From sequence record OR192075.1: a stretch of DNA of 64,000 nucleotides. One strand, given 5' to 3'. The notes below the pieces were generated by a model. The model was not told the origin of the DNA. It searched no databases and saw nothing but the letters and a program-made list of their open reading frames with translations. Numbering within the stretch: position 1 is the first letter of the stretch; each line of letters starts with the position of its first letter. Below are positions 4,347-38,987 of the stretch, piece by piece. Both the position numbers and the translations under genes were made by a program. Source of the DNA: Escherichia phage MIZ6.

Positions 4347-4388
4347 TCAATTTTTAGAGAGTATAACGGGGATTTCTCCCCGCGTCAA

Positions 4389-8510: not shown

Positions 8511-8780
8511 TCAATAATCATAAATCGCCCTCAGTTCTTTATAGCCTCCAATGTGCTCGTTGTTAATGAATATCTGGGGGTATACAAACCGGAGGCTCTT
8601 TGAGTTCAGCCTCCCCGCCAGTTCTTCAATCATATCACGGTCGGGAATAATGTCAACCCCGACCTGCTTGAATACTGGTTTAAGTGTATACGGAATACCC
8701 AGATCATCCAGTAGCTTCATTGCACTAATACAACCATAACAATGATAAGCCTCTTTCGGTATGCCGTATATCTCGATCAT
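8511..8780 (-). CDS. nrdH: glutaredoxin-like protein NrdH
   Basis: 89 aa with CYGC redox motif; synteny next to nrdG/nrdD. Confidence 0.75.
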   Translation of the reverse strand: MIEIYGIPKEAYHCYGCISAMKLLDDLGIPYTLKPVFKQVGVDIIPDRDMIEELAGRLNSKSLRFVYPQIFINNEHIGGYKELRAIYDY

Positions 8781-9277
8781 TTCTCAGCCTTTAATCTTTC
8801 TAGTTCTTCTTCCAGTTCCTTGATCCGTTGGTCACGTTCAAAGTCACGTTGTAGCTTAGTGGCAAATACCCGCTTAAACTGATTGTAATCATCGATTTTA
8901 AACACTTCTTCTTCGCCATAGCGACGTACAGAAACTTCGTAGTTATTGAAGAATTGTTGCATCATTGCTTCGGATGATAGTTCTGCTGATACTACTTTAA
9001 AATATTGATCTTCTGTAGGCGAAAACCAATTACAAGCATAAAGATAAACCTTTTCATTGTCTGGGCACTGGTAAGCCTTACCATCGATTTCAATCACAGA
9101 AACATATTCAGGTATAGTAGATGAATCAATAGCTAAGACTTTAAACTGACGGTCCCCGATAAACTCAGAGATCACACGATTCGCATCACTGGTTGCAAAG
9201 GCTTTACGCGCTTGTTCGCTTTTCCACTGATAGGTCATACCAACAACAAACATATTACCAACCTCGCTCTTTACCAA
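8777..9277 (-). CDS. paralogous modular protein A (beta-rich domain plus C-terminal coiled-coil tail)
   Basis: shares KSEQARK and domain pattern with neighbours; tail ...QRIKELEEELERLKAEK. Confidence 0.6.
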   Translation of the reverse strand: MVKSEVGNMFVVGMTYQWKSEQARKAFATSDANRVISEFIGDRQFKVLAIDSSTIPEYVSVIEIDGKAYQCPDNEKVYLYACNWFSPTEDQYFKVVSAELSSEAMMQQFFNNYEVSVRRYGEEEVFKIDDYNQFKRVFATKLQRDFERDQRIKELEEELERLKAEK

Positions 9278-10079
9278 TCAAAAATTCAACTTCACGACGT
9301 TTAATGTCTTCTTGAAGGTCTTTAATCTTCTGGCGATCTTGCATGATTTCGTCCATTTTGTCAAGTGCTGCAATAAAATCATCGAAACGTTCAAAGGTTT
9401 TACCTTCATTTGCTTCGCCAAATTTAACCATAGTCAGACCGTAACGACTACTAAACAGACGTTTCAACTGTCCAACGATCTTAGAATCAGTGGTTATAAC
9501 TTCCAATTCTTCTACTTCTTGAAAGAATTTTCTATCAGAATCAATAAACCAGCTAGTTCCTTTATGGTTGCTATCTTCGGTTGCACTCATTAGAGTATGG
9601 TCTTTACCATCAATTTCAATTACATCAATTTGCCCACATGGACGAACATTTTTAACAGTAAAAGGTCTATAATTTATTGCTCGTGCAATAACATAATTAA
9701 GGTTAGATACGTTTTCAGCATAATGGCAGAAGTCGGTCATAGCATTCGCATCTTTCCAAGTATAAGTTTTACCAACTTCCCATTTCTGGGGAACTTCTTC
9801 AACTTCACGAAAGAATTTTCTATCGAATGGACTAAAGAAATATGTTGCCGTCCAAATGTCTTTTCCTGTAGCAGTTTTCGCCGTATGATAAACACCGTCT
9901 AGCTCTATTGCATTAATCCAACCATTACCCTCGATCTCGATGATGGTAAATGGCTTGTCACCAATAGCTGCACTAATATCGCTATTAAGTGGAGAAAGAA
10001 CACCTTCTCCGTTAGTAATAAACTCAGTTTTAGCGTTTACATCTTTCCAGGTGTAAGTTTTACCAATTTCCCATTTCAT
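9255..10079 (-). CDS. paralogous modular protein B (internal tandem duplication of the ~95-aa domain)
   Basis: MKWEIGKTYTWKD...DRKFFREVEE repeated as KWEVGKTYTWKD...DRKFFQEVEE. Confidence 0.65.
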   Translation of the reverse strand: MKWEIGKTYTWKDVNAKTEFITNGEGVLSPLNSDISAAIGDKPFTIIEIEGNGWINAIELDGVYHTAKTATGKDIWTATYFFSPFDRKFFREVEEVPQKWEVGKTYTWKDANAMTDFCHYAENVSNLNYVIARAINYRPFTVKNVRPCGQIDVIEIDGKDHTLMSATEDSNHKGTSWFIDSDRKFFQEVEELEVITTDSKIVGQLKRLFSSRYGLTMVKFGEANEGKTFERFDDFIAALDKMDEIMQDRQKIKDLQEDIKRREVEFLIGKERGW

Positions 10080-10091
10080 AATATATTCCCC

Positions 10092-10577
10092 TTAACCGAT
10101 TTTATCAAGTTCGTTTAATGCTTTCTCTGCTTCCTGTATAGCTTGCACCCTTTCCGGCATTTTGTCAAGAAAATCTTTCAACTCTTCAAAACTGGAGATA
10201 TGACGCAAGGCATTAGCACCGATAGCCGCATGTGATTTGCATTCAAAGCGAATTTTATAATTATCCATAGCCAATTTGAGAAGATCAATTAGATCATATT
10301 CACGACCAGGCAATAAAACTTCTTTGAAGCACGCTCGGTCGCCATCGGAAAACCATATATTATCGCCAACATCGATAGAACTAATATAATCCCCTTCGTG
10401 ATTATAGATTGAACGTACATTACCCCAACGGTCTACAGTAGCGACAGTAAATGGTTTATCTAGATATGTAAACACACCATCAATATTAGGTTTTTGTTCG
10501 TAACGCCAACAATCACGCAAAATACGCTTTTCGTACTCACCAACCAACTTATATGTCTTCCCTTCTTCCCATTTCAT
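10092..10577 (-). CDS. paralogous modular protein C
   Basis: likely start at MKWEEGKTY...; same domain and helical tail (..MPERVQAIQEAEK..). Confidence 0.6.
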   Translation of the reverse strand: MKWEEGKTYKLVGEYEKRILRDCWRYEQKPNIDGVFTYLDKPFTVATVDRWGNVRSIYNHEGDYISSIDVGDNIWFSDGDRACFKEVLLPGREYDLIDLLKLAMDNYKIRFECKSHAAIGANALRHISSFEELKDFLDKMPERVQAIQEAEKALNELDKIG

Positions 10578-10581
10578 AATA

Positions 10582-11109
10582 TCATCTCTCATTTTTGATA
10601 TGTGATTCTAATTGGATCATACGGTCGCGCGTTTGCTTATATTCTCGGATAGCACCGATCCGGCTAGGCATACCATCCAGTACGCTCTTAATCCCTTCTA
10701 GGGTAGTGATTTTAGCAATACTATTATGCAATCCCATCTTATCGATTAACTGAATGTCGTAGGCTTCCATAAGCAGACCCAGACGTTCTAAAGTTAGGTC
10801 TTCTTCTTTTTCTTCCGATTCTGGAATCTTAGGTTCAATAGTAACTTCGGTAAAGAAACGACGCTCGCCCGACCAAAACCACACACCGGAACAGCCAATA
10901 GGGGATTCTTTTAACGTCATAGAGTCGTAACCGCTGCCGATAATAGTAATTTCTCTAACATCACCATCATCGTCAATGTCTTCTACCCTAAACGGGCGAC
11001 CAGCCAACAAGTCAACAATACATCTGTTAATAGACGACGAAAATTTAGTCAGTTCGGCTTTCGACGCTTCGCATTCAATCTTGTAAGTTTTACCAACTTC
11101 CCATTCCAT
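10582..11109 (-). CDS. paralogous modular protein D
   Basis: likely start MEWEVGKTY...; tail ..GMPSRIGAIREYK.. Confidence 0.6.
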   Translation of the reverse strand: MEWEVGKTYKIECEASKAELTKFSSSINRCIVDLLAGRPFRVEDIDDDGDVREITIIGSGYDSMTLKESPIGCSGVWFWSGERRFFTEVTIEPKIPESEEKEEDLTLERLGLLMEAYDIQLIDKMGLHNSIAKITTLEGIKSVLDGMPSRIGAIREYKQTRDRMIQLESHIKNER

Positions 11110-11119
11110 AATAATCACC

Positions 11120-11629
11120 TCAAATAATTTTCACTGGAATACTATTAACAATCTTGTATTGTACTTGATTGTCAGACCCCCGCCACGGCTTCTTCGTTGG
11201 CATATCTTTAATATAACGACCATCGATGAACATGTCAACTGATTCTACAATTTTTCTTTGCTCATCATTCAATTGGTCAAGGGTATAACCAGACCATAGC
11301 CAAATATCTTTATTTGGCATCCATGATTTTACTTCATCGATGATCCGCTGTACACCCTTTAAATTGCGTTTATACAGTGGATCGCCACCTAAGAATGTTA
11401 GCCCCTGAATAAAATCAGGTCTAAGCAGATCCAGAATCAATCCCATTGTATCATCGGTGAATGGTTCCCCGTTCTTAGGATTGAGTATACTGGAATTAAA
11501 GCAACCATCACATGCGTGTGAACATCCGGTAACGTAAAGGGAGACTCTCACTCCCTCACCGTTAACCATATCACAATCTTTAATATCGGCATAGCGTAGT
11601 TTGCCGTATGTATCAGAACTCATATTCAA
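11120..11629 (-). CDS. nrdG: anaerobic ribonucleotide reductase activating protein NrdG (radical SAM)
   Basis: 169 aa; CxxxCxxC cluster (CSHACDGC) near N-terminus; synteny with nrdD. Confidence 0.85.
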   Translation of the reverse strand: MNMSSDTYGKLRYADIKDCDMVNGEGVRVSLYVTGCSHACDGCFNSSILNPKNGEPFTDDTMGLILDLLRPDFIQGLTFLGGDPLYKRNLKGVQRIIDEVKSWMPNKDIWLWSGYTLDQLNDEQRKIVESVDMFIDGRYIKDMPTKKPWRGSDNQVQYKIVNSIPVKII

Positions 11630-11765
11630 TTACCCCGAACTCGTTTACAATCTGCGCTTTATAGTAACCACCGCGAGATGCTAATAGATAAGCTGGGCTT
11701 AGGTATTCGTATTCACGGATTTCTACTTGTGCGTTTTCAGTTTCCCAAATCAGTAAAGTCCACAT
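11613..11765 (-). CDS. hypothetical small protein (50 aa)
   Basis: track ORF 11613..11840 has the promoter inside its 5' end; true start likely ATG 11763-11765 with AGGAGA. Confidence 0.4.
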   Translation of the reverse strand: MWTLLIWETENAQVEIREYEYLSPAYLLASRGGYYKAQIVNEFGVIEYEF

Positions 11766-11807
11766 ATTTGATTCTCCTGTAAAGTTGTATCTCGTCTTGA
11801 TGAATAT

Positions 11808-11836
11808 AGTATAGGGGATCTCGCGATCCCCGTCAA
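11808..11836 (-). promoter_or_regulatory. sigma70-like early promoter
   Basis: -35 TTGACG 11831-11836, 17-bp spacer containing palindrome GGGGATC-GCGA-GATCCCC, -10 TATACT 11808-11813. Confidence 0.55.
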
Positions 11837-11840
11837 GCAT

Positions 11841-12389
11841 TTATTTTAAATTTTTTCGAATGTATTCAGACCATTCCTTCCCTGTCATTTCGGACCCGTT
11901 CTGGAAACTGAAATATTCATACGGCATCGAGTCAAGATAAAACAGGATCATACATCGCGCCATATAATACCAATCACGATTAAAGTAAACTACGTTATCA
12001 CCAGTACCATCAACCCCTTTATCATAACCATCGCGGGTACGGGCGACCCATTGAATAGTATCATTTTTCTCGCGGATCGTAACAGGTTCCCAATATCCAG
12101 CACATCCAGCATGACCACACGAACAAGTCAGGAAATATTGACCTTTTGCTTTGTTGTCATCCCATTCACGATGGATTGGTTCGATCTCGTGAAACAGTGC
12201 TAAGCAATCATGATTATGCAACACTGGCTTACCATCAATCAATGCATGGAATGTATACAAACGACCAGTAGACAAATAGCTATCCTCACGCTCAACCAGT
12301 TCAATAGCAATCTTTTTAGCTCGTTCTTTGTGTCGTTGTGCTTTACGCTTACGGTTTAATGATTTCATATTCACCTCACACATTATCAA
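11841..12389 (-). CDS. hypothetical protein
   Basis: 182-aa ORF; Cys/His-rich segment CSCGHAGCAGYW. Confidence 0.5.
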   Translation of the reverse strand: MIMCEVNMKSLNRKRKAQRHKERAKKIAIELVEREDSYLSTGRLYTFHALIDGKPVLHNHDCLALFHEIEPIHREWDDNKAKGQYFLTCSCGHAGCAGYWEPVTIREKNDTIQWVARTRDGYDKGVDGTGDNVVYFNRDWYYMARCMILFYLDSMPYEYFSFQNGSEMTGKEWSEYIRKNLK

Positions 12390-12796
12390 AGGTCGCGATA
12401 TAGTACATTATGAAAATGAGAACTTGCATTACCAATATTGTAGATAATAAATTCTTCATCCGGCGCTTGCGCTACAAATTGAGTATGAGCAACCGCCACA
12501 ACCTTAAAAATACGATCCGTGATCTTGTGTTTAATTTCTGCTCCTACTTCCATAGGAACATATTCATGTGTTTCTGTTTCAGTCGCAAAACAGCCATCTT
12601 CTTCATAAGCACGAACAAATCGATCGCAATCAGTACGCTTAACAAATTCAAGAGTATATAATTCTCGTGAATTGTCGGTATAGACCAACACAGAATTATT
12701 CTGATAGCGAATCACATACAGGTTATTATCATCGTCAATTACGCAAAAGCTACGGATTTGTGTTCCTTCGCCTTTACTCCAGCAGATATTAACCAC
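12386..12796 (-). CDS. hypothetical protein (GTG start with GAGGA RBS, or -1 frameshift continuation of upstream ORF)
   Basis: 136-aa ORF; 5' end overlaps 12739..12930 by 58 nt in the -1 frame. Confidence 0.5.
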   Translation of the reverse strand: MVNICWSKGEGTQIRSFCVIDDDNNLYVIRYQNNSVLVYTDNSRELYTLEFVKRTDCDRFVRAYEEDGCFATETETHEYVPMEVGAEIKHKITDRIFKVVAVAHTQFVAQAPDEEFIIYNIGNASSHFHNVLYRDL

Positions 12797-12959: not shown

Positions 12960-12988
12960 ATTATACATTAGCTAATCATGTTGTCAAC
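12960..12988 (-). promoter_or_regulatory. sigma70-like early promoter (cassette with terminator 13005-13024)
   Basis: -35 TTGACA 12983-12988, 17-bp spacer, -10 TATAAT 12960-12965. Confidence 0.6.
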
Positions 12989-14893: not shown

Positions 14894-14910
14894 TGTATCA
14901 CCTATGAAAA

Positions 14911-14929
14911 AGCGGGATTTTCTCCCGCT
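14911..14929 (-). terminator. terminator-like hairpin upstream of nrdD
   Basis: AGCGGGA-TTTTC-TCCCGCT followed by T5 on minus strand. Confidence 0.5.
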
Positions 14930-14938
14930 CGTTGATAG

Positions 14939-15433
14939 TTATTTTACCAGTTCTGCTAATTCTTTTTCTTTAGCTTCCAGTTCAGCCTTAAGCTGTTTAA
15001 TCTCTTGTCGCTTCTTATTAGCGGCTTCTTGCTTACTATTTCGGATAACCTGATCTAGATACAACTCCCAATCCTGAATATTTTTGATAATATAACCGTC
15101 AACATTAATTGGTCGGATATTTAGTACAGCTTCCAGTTTAGTCGCAAAAACTTTAATTGCTGGGGTGAAGTATTCATATTCGTTATCTTCAAACCAATAA
15201 CCTAGACTTGCATTATCAATACGAAGACGAAGTTCAAGATCAAGGTCTTTATCTTCGGTGTAAAGATCTTTCACCTGACCCAGCGAACTAACAACAACTT
15301 TAAAACGAATTTTATCTACACCACCAAACACATCAGTAAGTATACCAGCAATTGAGCTATTAGCGCAAGATTGGTCGCTGAATGCGTCAAGGTTTTCTTT
15401 AGTTACAGTATACCAAACATCTTGTACCCACAT
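14939..15433 (-). CDS. hypothetical protein with C-terminal coiled-coil tail (family-related)
   Basis: 164 aa; tail ..KKRQEIKQLKAELEAKEKELAELVK; own promoter and RBS. Confidence 0.55.
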   Translation of the reverse strand: MWVQDVWYTVTKENLDAFSDQSCANSSIAGILTDVFGGVDKIRFKVVVSSLGQVKDLYTEDKDLDLELRLRIDNASLGYWFEDNEYEYFTPAIKVFATKLEAVLNIRPINVDGYIIKNIQDWELYLDQVIRNSKQEAANKKRQEIKQLKAELEAKEKELAELVK

Positions 15434-15463
15434 AATATAATCCTCTCGTTGTTAAGTGGGAGT

Positions 15464-15491
15464 ATTATAGCATACTCCCTTCGCATGTCAA
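15464..15491 (-). promoter_or_regulatory. sigma70-like early promoter with inverted repeat around -10
   Basis: -35 TTGACA 15486-15491; -10 TATAAT 15464-15469 bracketed by GGGAGTAT (15458-15465) / ATACTCCC (15472-15479). Confidence 0.6.
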
Positions 15492-16666
15492 GCACTAACT
15501 TTTTTCTTTATTGCTTTCACCTTCTGGCGAATTGCTCGAATCTCTTCGATCTCTTTTTCAGTATCTTTAACAATTTCTTTGCGATTCTGAATATCTTTAT
15601 CGAGATTATCATCAAGTTTAGGCAGCATGTCAATCAAGAACTTTTTAAGGTCTTTCAGGTTGCGAATAACAGTACCTTCACCCATTACCGCCACGCCTAC
15701 ACCATCCGGCAGATCACCAAACAGCTTAACCAGTTCAGACAGATGATCATGATCTTCTAGTGCTTCTTCTGATTCAGATGGCAGTTCAACAAAGTTATAA
15801 CGTTCATCATTGCTGATCAGGTGATACCAGCAAAGCCCAAAAGATTTAGGAGTATATTCTACACCACCAACTTCAACTGCGTCAACACTTCCGAAAGAAT
15901 CTACTTTAGTTACCTTAAATCCATGTTCCAGCGTTTTAATAATTTCAATAACATGACTGGATACGGTTTCAGTATTAAACCAATGAGGCAAATTATGTGG
16001 ATTTGGCTTGTATCGTTCGCCTACTTTAAATCTCTGACCACGCTCTTGCATACGGACATATTCAACTCGCGTGATTTCCGCGAAGTATTCAAATTCGCTA
16101 CCGTCAAACAAGCAATTCCATTGATCACAAAAACGATCCGCCTTGACGGTTTCACCTTTCGCGGTGATCATGGTAGCTGATCCGTGCAATTCTTCTTCAA
16201 CCAAAAAGCCATATTCGACAAAATCAACAAGTTTCATGGCTTCTTTGTGCTCTGGGTCATGCTCTCCCCAGAATCGCTTAAATTCTTGCAAACCTTCTGG
16301 TGTAAACGAATAACATTTACCTTTTTCAAAGTAAGTCGGCATTGCATCCTCTTTCTTGTTCATCGCTTCGTATGCCTCTTTTGAGATGCGTTTAAAGTAT
16401 TTACGCTCATCGTGCATAATCATAGTAGCCCAATAATAAACGATATCCTCAGCGGAATAAACTACATCTCCAGCTTCAATAGTAATAACATGACCGTTGT
16501 CATCTTTTTCTAATACTTTAAAGCCCTTTTCGACGATTTCAGCAACCCGAATATGACCACGGCGCGAAGCATCGGTCAGAATAATTGAATAGCGAGAAAA
16601 GTCTAGAAACTCATCTTTACCACCTTCACGGAATGCATAGTAATGACCTTCAAAGAATTTAGCCAT
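15488..16666 (-). CDS. paralogous modular protein E (three repeats of GFKV-type domain plus helical tail)
   Basis: 392 aa; repeats GFKVLEKDD..ERKYFKRI, GFLVEEEL.., GFKVTKVD..ERYNFVEL. Confidence 0.65.
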   Translation of the reverse strand: MAKFFEGHYYAFREGGKDEFLDFSRYSIILTDASRRGHIRVAEIVEKGFKVLEKDDNGHVITIEAGDVVYSAEDIVYYWATMIMHDERKYFKRISKEAYEAMNKKEDAMPTYFEKGKCYSFTPEGLQEFKRFWGEHDPEHKEAMKLVDFVEYGFLVEEELHGSATMITAKGETVKADRFCDQWNCLFDGSEFEYFAEITRVEYVRMQERGQRFKVGERYKPNPHNLPHWFNTETVSSHVIEIIKTLEHGFKVTKVDSFGSVDAVEVGGVEYTPKSFGLCWYHLISNDERYNFVELPSESEEALEDHDHLSELVKLFGDLPDGVGVAVMGEGTVIRNLKDLKKFLIDMLPKLDDNLDKDIQNRKEIVKDTEKEIEEIRAIRQKVKAIKKKVSA

Positions 16667-16694
16667 AATATAATCCTCTAGTTGTTTAAATGGG

Positions 16695-16723
16695 AGTATC
16701 TTACTACTCCCGTTTCATCATGT
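16695..16723 (-). promoter_or_regulatory. sigma70-like early promoter with inverted repeat around -10
   Basis: -35 TTGACA 16718-16723, 17-bp spacer, -10 TAAGAT; arms GGGAGTA 16689-16695 / TACTCCC 16702-16708. Confidence 0.6.
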
Positions 16724-16729
16724 CAAGCG

Positions 16730-17290
16730 TTAAAGTGACTTTTGGATCTCTTTCAGTTCAGCTACTTTATCGGCGCTGAATTTAGCGTAGGTATCATGTC
16801 GAATAATTTCACTTTCAAGAAAGGTTTCCAGCCGAGATCTATTTTCAATAAGGAACTCTTTCAGGTCTTCCGCGTTCTTGATAAAGATTTTATTGTCAGT
16901 AATGTCATCTTCAATCGCAAAGGAGATAGAGCGAACTTTACCAAACAAGTTAATCAGATCTTCCAGCGATTCTTCTTTCTTAACTGGTTTCATTTCTTCA
17001 AACTGCTTTTTAGTGATGCGTTTAAAGTATTTGCGCTCGTTTGCAGCAATCAGAACAGATGCACCTTCATACCCATGAGTTTCTACCAGATACACACGCC
17101 CCATCGCATCAACAGTGAGAACTTTAAAGCCGTTACAAAGCACGTCATACAAGAACTTATTATGTTGCGGACATCGTTTGATAAATTCTGCGGCTGTTTC
17201 TGCACTACGGAAAGTATAGTAACGACCTCGTTCAAAAACAGCATCATTTGAAGACTTAGCCGGATACAATTTATACGTTTTCTGTACCAT
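16730..17290 (-). CDS. paralogous modular protein F
   Basis: likely start ATG 17288-17290 (MVQKTYKLY) with GAGGAT RBS; GFKVLTVDAMGRV..ERKYFKRI. Confidence 0.6.
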   Translation of the reverse strand: MVQKTYKLYPAKSSNDAVFERGRYYTFRSAETAAEFIKRCPQHNKFLYDVLCNGFKVLTVDAMGRVYLVETHGYEGASVLIAANERKYFKRITKKQFEEMKPVKKEESLEDLINLFGKVRSISFAIEDDITDNKIFIKNAEDLKEFLIENRSRLETFLESEIIRHDTYAKFSADKVAELKEIQKSL

Positions 17291-17304
17291 AATATAATCC
17301 TCTA

Positions 17305-17577
17305 TCATTTCACTAATTGAACAGCACGAAACAGAATGCGGTCACACGGAAGAAGCATAAATTCCCAACGCGGATCAAAGTCTTTAGCGGTATATGTTTT
17401 CCCATCAACCGAGATTTCACTTACATAACCAATAGGTGACACTTTAAGAACAGTAAACCCATTCTTGATGACTTCGTAGGTATCTTTCAATCCTTCGTAG
17501 TCATCCTCTAGGAAGTCTTTACGTGCTTGCTCAGATTTAAAAACATAGGCAACACCGGATTTAAACATCTTACGCAT
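17305..17577 (-). CDS. paralogous protein G (single domain)
   Basis: likely start ATG 17575-17577 (MRKMFKSGV) with AAGGAG; shares KSEQARK with A and GFTVLKV with E/F. Confidence 0.55.
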   Translation of the reverse strand: MRKMFKSGVAYVFKSEQARKDFLEDDYEGLKDTYEVIKNGFTVLKVSPIGYVSEISVDGKTYTAKDFDPRWEFMLLPCDRILFRAVQLVK

Positions 17578-17608
17578 TGTTGATTCTCCTTCTTGATTAG
17601 ATGGGAGT

Positions 17609-17637
17609 ATTTTACTACTCCCATTTCTTATTGTCAA
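17609..17637 (-). promoter_or_regulatory. sigma70-like early promoter with inverted repeat around -10
   Basis: -35 TTGACA 17632-17637, 17-bp spacer, -10 TAAAAT; arms GGGAGTA 17603-17609 / TACTCCC 17616-17622. Confidence 0.6.
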
Positions 17638-17640
17638 CTA

Positions 17641-20868: not shown

Positions 20869-21243
20869 TTAAAAATCTTCTTCCGGTTTATATCGACCGT
20901 CATCGACTGGTTTTGGACTGAATCCGGTATGTTTGCGCGGCTTCGCTTCCGGTTTCCCCGCGATCGATAGTCCAAGCCATTTAAGAAGTTTGTATGAGTA
21001 AGCGATGATCACAACCACCCACGTTAAAGGCCATACAATAGAACAAATGGCATATGCTCCGGTATCGACCTCTTTGGTGTCCTTATCGAATCTGGCATAC
21101 AAGCAAATTATAAGATATGTGATCATTGCACCAGTAGGCCAAATATAAAGCACATTAACAATATCTTGTGTTGTCACGTTATCCTCCTTACATGTCTTGC
21201 AGTGCATAAAAGCATTTTTCTTCGTAGTCATAGAAAATGTCAA
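20869..21243 (-). CDS. hypothetical membrane protein
   Basis: 124 aa with two hydrophobic segments; start uncertain. Confidence 0.45.
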   Translation of the reverse strand: MTFSMTTKKNAFMHCKTCKEDNVTTQDIVNVLYIWPTGAMITYLIICLYARFDKDTKEVDTGAYAICSIVWPLTWVVVIIAYSYKLLKWLGLSIAGKPEAKPRKHTGFSPKPVDDGRYKPEEDF

Positions 21244-21466
21244 AGTATGCTTTTTCTACATACTCACCATTGATCCAAGCGGCAGTAACAATCAGAGTGG
21301 TCCAGTTAGATCCGCTCTCAACGGTAAAGGTTTTAATACCCAGCTTCGCTGCCAAGTCACGAGCAAACTGATCGCAACCACGGCAGGAAGTGATATTGGA
21401 AGTTTTGATTTTAAAGCCACCGCGAGTTTTAGAAATTTCTACTTTAGCGAAAGACAGGTTGCTCAT
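21188..21466 (-). CDS. hypothetical protein
   Basis: likely start ATG 21464-21466 (MSNLSFAK) with AAGGAGAAT leader. Confidence 0.45.
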   Translation of the reverse strand: MSNLSFAKVEISKTRGGFKIKTSNITSCRGCDQFARDLAAKLGIKTFTVESGSNWTTLIVTAAWINGEYVEKAYFDIFYDYEEKCFYALQDM

Positions 21467-21508
21467 TTTGATTCTCCTTAAGAAAGTGTGTTTCGTTTTG
21501 ATGTGTGT

Positions 21509-21537
21509 AGTATAGGGGATCACCGATCCCCTGTCAA
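21509..21537 (-). promoter_or_regulatory. sigma70-like early promoter
   Basis: -35 TTGACA 21532-21537; spacer palindrome GGGGATC-ACC-GATCCCC 21515-21531; -10 TATACT 21509-21514. Confidence 0.55.
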
Positions 21538-35992: not shown

Positions 35993-36021
35993 GATGGGTG
36001 TATTATGCTATACACCCTCTC
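35993..36021 (-). promoter_or_regulatory. sigma70-like early promoter with inverted repeat around -10
   Basis: -35 TTGACA 36016-36021, 17-bp spacer, -10 CATAAT 35993-35998; arms GGGTGTAT 35987-35994 / ATACACCC 36001-36008. Confidence 0.6.
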
Positions 36022-38542: not shown

Positions 38543-38935
38543 TTAAGAAAATTTTACTTCGTCTACAATGTCTTTCATGACATTGATTTCCATTCCGGTC
38601 AGAACACGTTGGAACATGTGCTGAACATACGCTTTCAGGTATTCATTTGATGGCTTGCTATCGAAAGTCTTTTTAGTGTAGTAGTCATCACCGAAAGCTA
38701 CTGTAATTACATTTTCGTCGTCGTTCCAAGCGATATAAGCAAATTTGCCGTTATCCCAGAAGCGAGCACTAATTGCTACTTTTGTTGAATCGAATCCTAC
38801 TTCGCTGTGAGATTCAAGAACTACTTGCGTGCCAGTTTCTTTATGAATGTAGTAGCGGGATACTAAGTCAAAGTTACGGGTGTAGTGACATTCGAACTTA
38901 TCTTTAAACATCATCATCATTTTTGATTCTCCCAA
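38543..38935 (-). CDS. hypothetical protein
   Basis: 130-aa ORF; promoter cassette upstream. Confidence 0.5.
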   Translation of the reverse strand: MGESKMMMMFKDKFECHYTRNFDLVSRYYIHKETGTQVVLESHSEVGFDSTKVAISARFWDNGKFAYIAWNDDENVITVAFGDDYYTKKTFDSKPSNEYLKAYVQHMFQRVLTGMEINVMKDIVDEVKFS

Positions 38936-38958
38936 GTGTTTTTCGTTTCTATGTGTGC

Positions 38959-38987
38959 ATTATGCTATAGTCGTTTATGGTTGTCAA
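38959..38987 (-). promoter_or_regulatory. sigma70-like early promoter (cassette with terminator 39006-39024)
   Basis: -35 TTGACA 38982-38987, 17-bp spacer, -10 CATAAT 38959-38964. Confidence 0.55.

Follow-up and report, generated by a model that had tools for sequence, protein, structure and literature searches.

Two paralogue arrays flanking nrdD and nrdG in RB49-like phages: a very likely lineage-specific expansion of the T4 GoF/Frd.2/MotB.1 family

What are the four neighbouring genes at 14939-17637 of Escherichia phage MIZ6 (OR192075.1), and by what routes did they multiply and diverge? The stretch lies within the 64,000 nucleotides of DNA analysed here (the window), and a sequence-only reading had proposed that the genes at 14939-15433, 15488-16666, 16730-17290 and 17305-17577 form a second array of a superfamily also found on the other side of nrdD and nrdG. 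We refer to the first array (8777-11109) by its genes A-D and to the second (14939-17577) by its genes G, F, E and H; all lie on the minus strand, and their limits, including the four proposed for array 2, agree with the coding sequences annotated in GEC-3S and RB49. The locus is very likely a lineage-specific expansion, in the RB49-like T4-type coliphages (Krischvirus), of the phage T4 GoF/Frd.2/MotB.1 family, whose members are non-essential early proteins, a statement that covers family identity and evolutionary mechanism and leaves the ligand to be weighed separately. The stretch is 100% identical in MIZ2 and MIZ3, 98.9% in GEC-3S and 94.7% in RB49; all 58 matching DNA records are Krischvirus, the whole region from nrdH to endoVII is kept in the same 58, and all eight genes are intact in 57 of them.

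On sequence evidence, it is statistically solid that arrays 1 and 2 are linked members of one superfamily. The eight proteins were cut into 11 putative domains, and hold-out hidden Markov models (HMMs) were run against the 622 stop-to-stop open reading frames (ORFs) of the window. A model built from array 1 only (A, B1, B2, C and D) recovered gene E at an expect value of 2.6e-10, G at 1.3e-9, F at 2.2e-5 and H at 1.6e-3; reciprocally, the array 2-only model recovered B at 4.9e-16, A at 5.9e-8, D at 1.3e-6 and C at 3.1e-6, with the best unrelated ORF in these cross-array searches at 0.14 or above. The proposal of a second array of the same superfamily thus gains expect values from 1e-3 to 5e-16, and cross-matches of PHROG profiles repeat the same pattern between arrays. 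The three internal repeats proposed for E also stood up, as the middle copy (E2) was found by a model built without it (domain expect value 2.1e-6). The match of H is the weakest (1.6e-3 to 4e-3 in hold-out tests), yet it spans the full domain length. Identity among the domain copies is 12-49%, with B1/B2 (49%), E1/F (36%) and A/G (34%) the top pairs; A and G, the closest cross-array pair, both carry the motif KSEQARK(D/A)F that had been taken to link them. Because the copies are only 12-49% identical the duplications are old, which rules out the recent duplication or gene conversion among copies that had been suggested for checking; the RB49-type C allele is likewise not closer to any other paralogue in the window.

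The count of copies came out slightly lower than claimed, at 11 on eight genes in the ~9 kb around nrdDG rather than at least 12, and the ORFs between nrdG and nrdD (11613-12796) gave no family match with the domain profiles (expect values of at least 0.27). Candidate copies at 34707-35039 and 38546-38959 were set aside as marginal, partial matches (0.009-0.15). The ORF at 21188-21523 (phrog_15990) was not counted either, with a partial match at positions 28-85 to the broad family profile only (6e-4); it could be a remote or degenerate relative of the family. These results bear on the reading of the genes as fragments or decayed remnants of structural or enzyme genes, their repeats being compositional artefacts. 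All that speaks for it is the sub-threshold noise (e.g. RecT and LYR in Pfam) that searches of Pfam, NCBIfam and PDB sequences returned. The same searches gave no match at threshold, to structural proteins or otherwise, the family being simply absent from these libraries. Reciprocal cross-array detection down to 5e-16, a repeated fold confidently predicted in the models of F and E, consensus promoters with ribosome-binding sites, purifying selection, with nonsynonymous to synonymous rate ratios (dN/dS) of 0.07-0.30, and conservation of the genes in 58 records also oppose it. We regard this reading as already refuted and give it next to no weight.

The link to T4 was reached by searching a profile exhaustively against 1.84 billion cluster representatives, word-indexed protein searches having returned only close Krischvirus relatives. 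At expect values up to 1e-3 the exhaustive search found 77 proteins, mostly one barrel plus a tail (140-190 aa; most 140-270 aa overall), some with two barrels and one other with three, and among them a GoF orthologue (P0094, 9e-4). Proteins of 800-2800 aa, which gave repeated matches to profile positions ~35-75 only, were treated as unrelated repeat proteins. Run against T4, the HMM of the 11 window domains scored GoF at 33.6 bits (residues 4-91), Frd.2 at 14.1 bits (2-87) and MotB.1 at 9.7 bits, with the neighbours of these genes scoring about zero; family-wide HMM scores were 61.4, 37.0 and 19.3 bits, respectively. Three PHROGs named 'goF' were matched (phrog_8944, phrog_13003 and phrog_2980), and RefSeq labels F 'goF mRNA metabolism modulator' and E likewise goF. 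Foldseek against viral models gave 44 matches at expect values up to 1e-3, most of them in large myoviruses, T4-like or other; the VR7 protein 'GoF putative mRNA metabolism modulator' (5.5e-6) and the ECD7 orthologue of RB49-type Dc2 are included. Restriction to phages is seen at both levels, with all DNA matches in Krischvirus and all structural matches at this threshold viral.

The GoF/Frd.2/MotB.1 family was defined by Kim et al. 2025 as a 'Tevenvirinae LSm-like fold' (PMC12152347). In that account, family genes, including T4 GoF (ComC-alpha), are early and phage-restricted and have a layout of N-terminal domain, linker and variable C-terminal domain; FeoA and IdeR/DtxR were found as structural neighbours, metal-binding histidines were not reported in GoF, for which AlphaFold3 also failed to yield confident multimers (PMC12152347). 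Only the mutant GoF(D25Y) stabilised a reporter RNA bearing the 5' untranslated region of gene 41, wild-type GoF and MotB.1 having little effect in the same assay (PMC12152347). The window proteins share with this family a homologous ~90-aa N-terminal five-stranded small beta-barrel, by profile and predicted structure, and A, C, D, F and H show the published layout, of which B with two barrels, E with three and G with a barrel and no C-terminal domain are variants. T4 has three dispersed single-barrel genes, whereas in Krischvirus eight genes stand in two arrays flanking nrdD/nrdG, and a C-terminal module with a heptad helix is common to seven of these eight proteins whereas the C-terminal domains in T4 are unrelated. 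When the rest of RB49 was scanned with the profiles, one further member, Dc2, was found and nothing else. This 211-aa protein (RB49 L013 11993-12628, outside the window) has a barrel and a charged helical tail (30.6 bits, expect value 3.3e-9), and as the sole extra member it brings the Krischvirus total to nine genes and 12 barrels, of which eight genes and 11 barrels are in the arrays, against three in T4. Dc2 lies directly upstream of the helicase gene 41, an intriguing neighbour given that the 5' untranslated region of this same gene is where T4 GoF(D25Y) acts. Between gene 39 and dexA, the position of goF and motB.1 in T4, RB49 has neither gene. Kim et al. make no mention of RB49, tandem domains, paralogue arrays or allelic domain replacement (PMC12152347), and literature searches found nothing relevant on RB49 paralogue arrays or Dc1/Dc2.

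The N-terminal domain is predicted to be a five-stranded small beta-barrel whose nearest fold is FeoA-type SH3-like. The AlphaFold2 model of F, from a 29-sequence alignment, has a predicted local distance difference test score (pLDDT) of 87.3, with strands at residues 24-27, 55-60, 66-70, 77-81 and 89-92 and a 35-residue helix at the C-terminus; that of E (pLDDT 70, predicted template modelling score (pTM) 0.33) contains the barrel unit three times, followed by a helix, a beta-hairpin and a 55-residue helix. In both models the barrel runs from strand b1 through two helices to b2-b5. Foldseek against the PDB found nothing significant, with FeoA and IdeR chains among the closest and eL27 and Spt5 KOW among the weak matches. 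Hfq and Sm proteins were absent from the top structural matches and the N-terminal Sm helix before b1 was absent in the models, for which reasons we describe the fold as a FeoA-like SH3-type small beta-barrel; a specific LSm/Hfq assignment was not supported by the fold searches. The likeness to FeoA and to the C-terminal SH3-like domain of DtxR/IdeR (CATH 2.30.30.90) is a resemblance of fold, with FeoA and IdeR chains among the neighbours, and not evidence of membership: sequence similarity is not detectable, and the context here is that of a phage early gene. SH3-like barrels with helical insertions, as in FeoA and DtxR/IdeR, act in protein-protein contacts. Hfq and Sm/LSm proteins have in common with this family the small beta-barrel superfold and the RNA-related phenotype of GoF(D25Y); they differ in the N-terminal helix, and here the barrels are mostly acidic and ring formation is without support. 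Nine of the 11 barrels are acidic (net charge -2 to -12), and that of F is basic (+8).

A charged helical tail had been ascribed to all the genes and is present in seven of the eight, G (90 aa) having none. It forms part of a C-terminal module of helix, beta-hairpin and long charged heptad helix that aligns across paralogues and distant homologues; the tails are 33-52% charged, with a hydrophobicity of 0.58-0.67 at heptad positions a and d against 0.20-0.33 elsewhere, a pattern that fits a coiled coil. Within array 2, G (17305-17577; phrog_16115; dN/dS 0.16) is a single beta-barrel domain. The 186-aa F (16730-17290) combines a short N-terminal extension, the basic barrel (net +8, isoelectric point 9.6) and the C-terminal helical module; it starts 14 nt past the G stop and is translationally adjacent to G, with no promoter of its own. 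E (15488-16666, 392 aa; phrog_8944; 'frd.2' in the RB49 annotation) has three tandem barrels, E1 (16379-16666), E2 (16061-16342) and E3 (15758-16036), and then the C-terminal module (15488-15757). H (14939-15433, 164 aa; phrog_15067 and phrog_3710) joins the most divergent barrel (15158-15433) to a C-terminal module with a charged heptad helix. Array 1 comprises A (8777-9253), the two-barrel B (9255-10079), C (10092-10577) and D (10582-11109), four genes that lie close together on the downstream side of nrdG, without intervening cassettes.

The cassettes of array 2 have a published counterpart. Promoter-early stem-loops (PeSLs) were described in phi1/RB49, including a subclass in which the stem-loop overlaps the -10 element, with nrdD named as PeSL-associated (Arbiol et al. 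2010, PMC2839356), and were also treated by Comeau et al. 2014 (PMC4122927). By their sequence features, the three cassettes of array 2 are PeSLs of this subclass. PeSL_G (17578-17640) has a -35 element TTGACA at 17637-17632, a -10 element TAAAAT at 17614-17609 and a hairpin at 17603-17622, with the Shine-Dalgarno sequence GGAG and an ATG at 17577; PeSL_E (16667-16729) has TTGACA at 16726-16721, TAAGAT at 16703-16698, a hairpin at 16692-16711 and the leader AACAACTAGAGGATTATATTATG; and PeSL_H (15434-15495) has TTGACA at 15491-15486, TATAAT with a TG extension at 15469-15464 and a hairpin at 15458-15479, all on the minus strand. The promoters (TTGACA-N17-TAAAAT, TTGACA-N17-TAAGAT and TTGACA-N16-TATAAT) match the sigma-70 consensus at 11/12 (17637-17609), 10/12 (16726-16698) and 12/12 positions (15491-15464), respectively. 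The outer two were located exactly in the sequence-only reading and the middle one 3 nt off, and GEC-3S annotates promoters at the PeSL_G and PeSL_H sites. That reading had also placed a near-identical cassette before each gene: this describes G, E and H and not F, leaving three cassettes for four genes, and conservation is limited to the core, PeSL_G and PeSL_E being 72% identical over 78 nt.

At this core, GGGAGTA-N6-8-TACTCCC brackets the -10 element in all three cassettes and occurs nowhere else in the window (three occurrences against none expected). Its stem of 7-9 bp spans the -10, with folding energies of -13.8 (z -3.6), -11.9 and -14.7 kcal/mol for PeSL_G, PeSL_E and PeSL_H (z range -2.8 to -3.6), and at most one in 200 shuffles folds as well. 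A leader, AACAAC(G/T)AGAGGATTATATTATG, follows each cassette and also precedes F and the first ORF after a promoter at 12987; upstream of F, GAGGATTATATTATG is all that is shared with the cassette-bearing genes. The stop codons of endoVII, F and E fall 0-8 nt from the -35 element or inside it, with the Shine-Dalgarno sequence and ATG downstream, and the TGA of E sits within the TTGACA of PeSL_H (15486-15491), so that the E coding sequence and the H promoter overlap. The AT content of the 20 nt upstream of the cassettes is 75%, 60% and 75% against 60% for the window, a clear enrichment in two of the three.

The likeness to published PeSLs therefore extends to a sigma-70 consensus promoter with an embedded hairpin, an upstream stop, a 3' end with a Shine-Dalgarno sequence and ATG, a place in a hyperplastic region, and an indel between relatives with a chimeric cassette at its junction (below). 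The three differ in forming a sub-type of their own, whose identical GGGAGTA/TACTCCC stem is unique to them within the 64 kb, and in flanking one paralogue family rather than unrelated ORFans; here they are known from sequence features. Other PeSL-type cassettes of promoter and hairpin occur at 30639-30658, 35996-36017 and 4357-4380, with stems GGGGGTA/TACCCCC, GGGTGTA/TACACCC and GGGGAGA/TCTCCCC.

Read 5' to 3' on the minus strand, the region runs endoVII, cassette-G-F, cassette-E, cassette-H and a terminator, followed by nrdD, a second terminator, a sigma-70 promoter, three small ORFs, nrdG, D, C, B, A and nrdH. We infer that array 2 would be transcribed as three early units, PeSL_G driving G and F, PeSL_E driving E and PeSL_H driving H, ending at the intrinsic terminator before nrdD (14905-14941, minus strand; GAGCGGGAGAAAATCCCGCTTTTTC; -16.9 kcal/mol, z -5.0), which is annotated at the equivalent site of GEC-3S. 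Each promoter should start RNA downstream of the 3' arm of its hairpin, so the hairpin would form only in read-through RNA from upstream, which would fit the attenuator role proposed for PeSLs, also described as mobile (Arbiol et al. 2010, PMC2839356).

Comparison of the region with nine other Krischvirus genomes shows three routes by which the arrays change: PeSL-PeSL recombination, unequal crossover in the conserved first codons of paralogues, and the swap of single barrel-coding blocks of ~300 bp for deeply diverged alleles. The first two appear together in KFS-EC (L005 1893-2357 and 7941-8005). This phage lacks exactly G and F, with one chimeric cassette at the junction whose upstream part comes from PeSL_G and whose hairpin, leader and start come from PeSL_E; in sequence, the loss matches the published PeSL excision scheme shown for ORF192 (PMC2839356). 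It also lacks D, the remaining gene consisting of the D upstream region and first 12 nt fused to a C allele, with the switch point in a common GGAAG within a 32-nt 5' coding repeat of B1, B2, C and D (78-94% identity). A metagenomic protein, P0020, is likewise a chimera, of a D barrel and a B tail. The suggestion that the expansion arose by recombination between cassettes thus has an actual product in KFS-EC to its credit; it cannot explain the whole, because array 1 (four genes, five domains) has no cassettes, the repeats of B and E are intragenic and the duplications are old, and KFS-EC itself displays a second crossover route.

The third route is seen in pairwise DNA alignments, in which identity drops below 80% mostly over blocks of 150-360 bp, the majority ~300 bp; in the family genes such blocks map to single modules, between flanks at least 95% identical. 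Divergent blocks cover the A barrel (8950-9249), B2 (9460-9789), the C barrel (10270-10569), the D barrel (10780-11109) and the H barrel (15070-15429), along with part of the F barrel and the F tail. At the protein level, barrels are either at least 90% or 42-63% identical between phages, save for E3 and the F barrel, which are 81-85% identical in several; tails are mostly 85-100% identical (the F tail 63-64% in two phages), and nrdD, nrdG and endoVII 96-100%. Whisky, Brandy and JK32 carry a different allele in place of the H N-terminal domain, and among the 58 records the window allele is found in 28 for the C barrel and in 53 for the H barrel. Metagenomic C variants show the same contrast, with barrels at 90, 82, 76, 59 and 48% identity on a tail steady at 96-97%. 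Two unrelated ORFs between nrdG and nrdD (11841-12796; 182 aa, phrog_8242, and 136 aa, phrog_14838) are also mosaic, at 48-72% amino acid identity in some genomes, so mosaicism is a property of the region, and the domain-sized unit is specific to the GoF-type family.

Comparisons within allele classes gave dN/dS values of 0.17-0.30 (barrels), 0.07-0.20 (tails) and 0.03-0.10 (enzymes). Such low values indicate purifying selection, and the variability comes from exchange of old alleles, not from measurable recent positive selection; gene-wide positive selection on barrels was looked for and not found, between-class divergence being saturated. They also weigh on the reading that the arrays are dispensable filler of a hyperplastic region, in which PeSL-flanked modules spread by recombination or mini-circles and contribute little or nothing to fitness. 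The loss of G, F and D in KFS-EC, the frameshifted metagenomic variants P0014, P0017, P0019 and P0026 and the described mobility of PeSLs (PMC2839356) would all suit such filler. Set against them are eight genes intact in 57 of 58 records, selection (dN/dS 0.07-0.30) on barrels and tails alike, tails that stay mostly 85-100% identical across allele classes, and the retention of array 1 although it has no PeSLs, and we consider mere filler very improbable. The four variants themselves look like D and B proteins that have undergone a frameshift or truncation and end in K-rich out-of-frame sequence; they and the D/B chimera P0020 could be sequencing errors, pseudogenes or real variants.

Beyond the arrays, a strong intrinsic terminator follows nrdD (13025-13004, minus strand), and 3' of it lies a sigma-70 promoter with a perfect 12/12 match (12987-12960, minus strand) and the leader AACAACGAGAGGA, where the GGGAGTA hairpin is absent. 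From its sequence context this promoter probably serves a single early operon made up of the three small ORFs, nrdG and array 1. In JSE, nrdD is split by a homing endonuclease gene (L007 5616-6365), and in GEC-3S and KMB43 an HNH endonuclease lies between nrdC and dam (GEC-3S L001 11483-12238); these insertions are more evidence for high plasticity around the locus. Near 44 kb of the window the GC skew changes sign, consistent with a switch from leftward early to rightward late genes.

What might such proteins do? We favour a role as oligomeric multivalent binders that would be joined through the constant tail and would contact a macromolecular ligand with each variable barrel. For that ligand, host or phage proteins are the leading candidates, with a probability a little short of even; RNA, as the GoF(D25Y) phenotype suggests, is a distinctly less likely one, and something else takes what is left. 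Protein binding is preferred to RNA chaperoning because of the acidic barrels, the protein-interaction character of SH3-like folds, the pairing of variable barrels with a constant tail and the lack of an RNA phenotype for wild-type GoF. The rival is that the proteins are Hfq/LSm-like chaperones whose barrels bind RNA and form Sm-type rings (for instance, the three barrels of E paired through a coiled coil to make six), stabilising or remodelling phage or host mRNAs. GoF(D25Y), the basic F barrel (net +8, isoelectric point 9.6) and Dc2, directly upstream of gene 41 in RB49, keep RNA alive as a ligand: the mutant raises the stability of the gene 41 5' untranslated region reporter RNA and the fold has been called LSm-like (PMC12152347), and Sm, KOW and ribosomal RNA binders all belong to the small beta-barrel superfold, with eL27 and Spt5 KOW among our weak matches. 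Yet in the same work wild-type GoF and MotB.1 had little effect and no confident multimers were predicted by AlphaFold3 (PMC12152347), nine of 11 barrels carry a net negative charge (-2 to -12), and the topology starts at b1 with two helices inserted before b2 and without the Sm N-terminal helix. Barrels that differ by 40-55% between otherwise identical phages would, moreover, be unusual for a general RNA chaperone, and on this balance we judge the chaperone reading unlikely.

Returning to multivalent binding, a bolder form of it is a variable/constant recognition system, with a population pool of interchangeable barrel cassettes of ~300 bp recombined onto constant oligomerising tails; we consider this speculative and unlikely. 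If true, each phage would have up to 12 different binding modules on display at an early stage of infection. The pool itself would persist through frequency-dependent selection imposed by host factors or defence systems that vary, and the GoF family would serve in counter-defence or host capture instead of modulating mRNA.

Several observations count against the picture we have drawn. H joins the family only at an expect value of about 1e-3 when held out; the placement of the E domains relative to each other is undefined in the model (pTM 0.33); and no U-run lies 3' of any of the three hairpins, so that their sequence gives no clear indication of terminator activity. Gene-wide dN/dS values do not reach 1 and so offer no direct sign of an arms race; mosaicism extends beyond the GoF-type family; and the searchable literature holds no experiment on any of the eight proteins.

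As the GoF family and PeSLs are both published, this is not a new kind of system. The sequence-only reading had treated the features as unexplained, whereas the proteins belong to the published GoF/Frd.2/MotB.1 group and the mechanism of the cassettes was already set out by Arbiol et al. 2010. The literature searched seems to contain no account of how large the expansion is, of tandem-barrel proteins, of the common C-terminal module or of allelic exchange in domain-sized units. The gene goF (comC-alpha) has puzzled geneticists since the 1970s, and the structural paper of 2025 still left it without a wild-type function. RB49-like phages make the function of the family directly testable, with nine paralogues of one to three barrels, natural deletions (KFS-EC) and discrete single-barrel allele classes on otherwise isogenic backgrounds, the C barrel being split ~28 to 30 among sequenced phages. 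Many Krischvirus isolates are candidates for therapy, giving the role of their most variable early genes practical value. The locus is a clean example of PeSL-mediated module loss, and it indicates that single protein domains, and not genes alone, can be the unit of exchange in the hyperplastic regions of T4-type phages.

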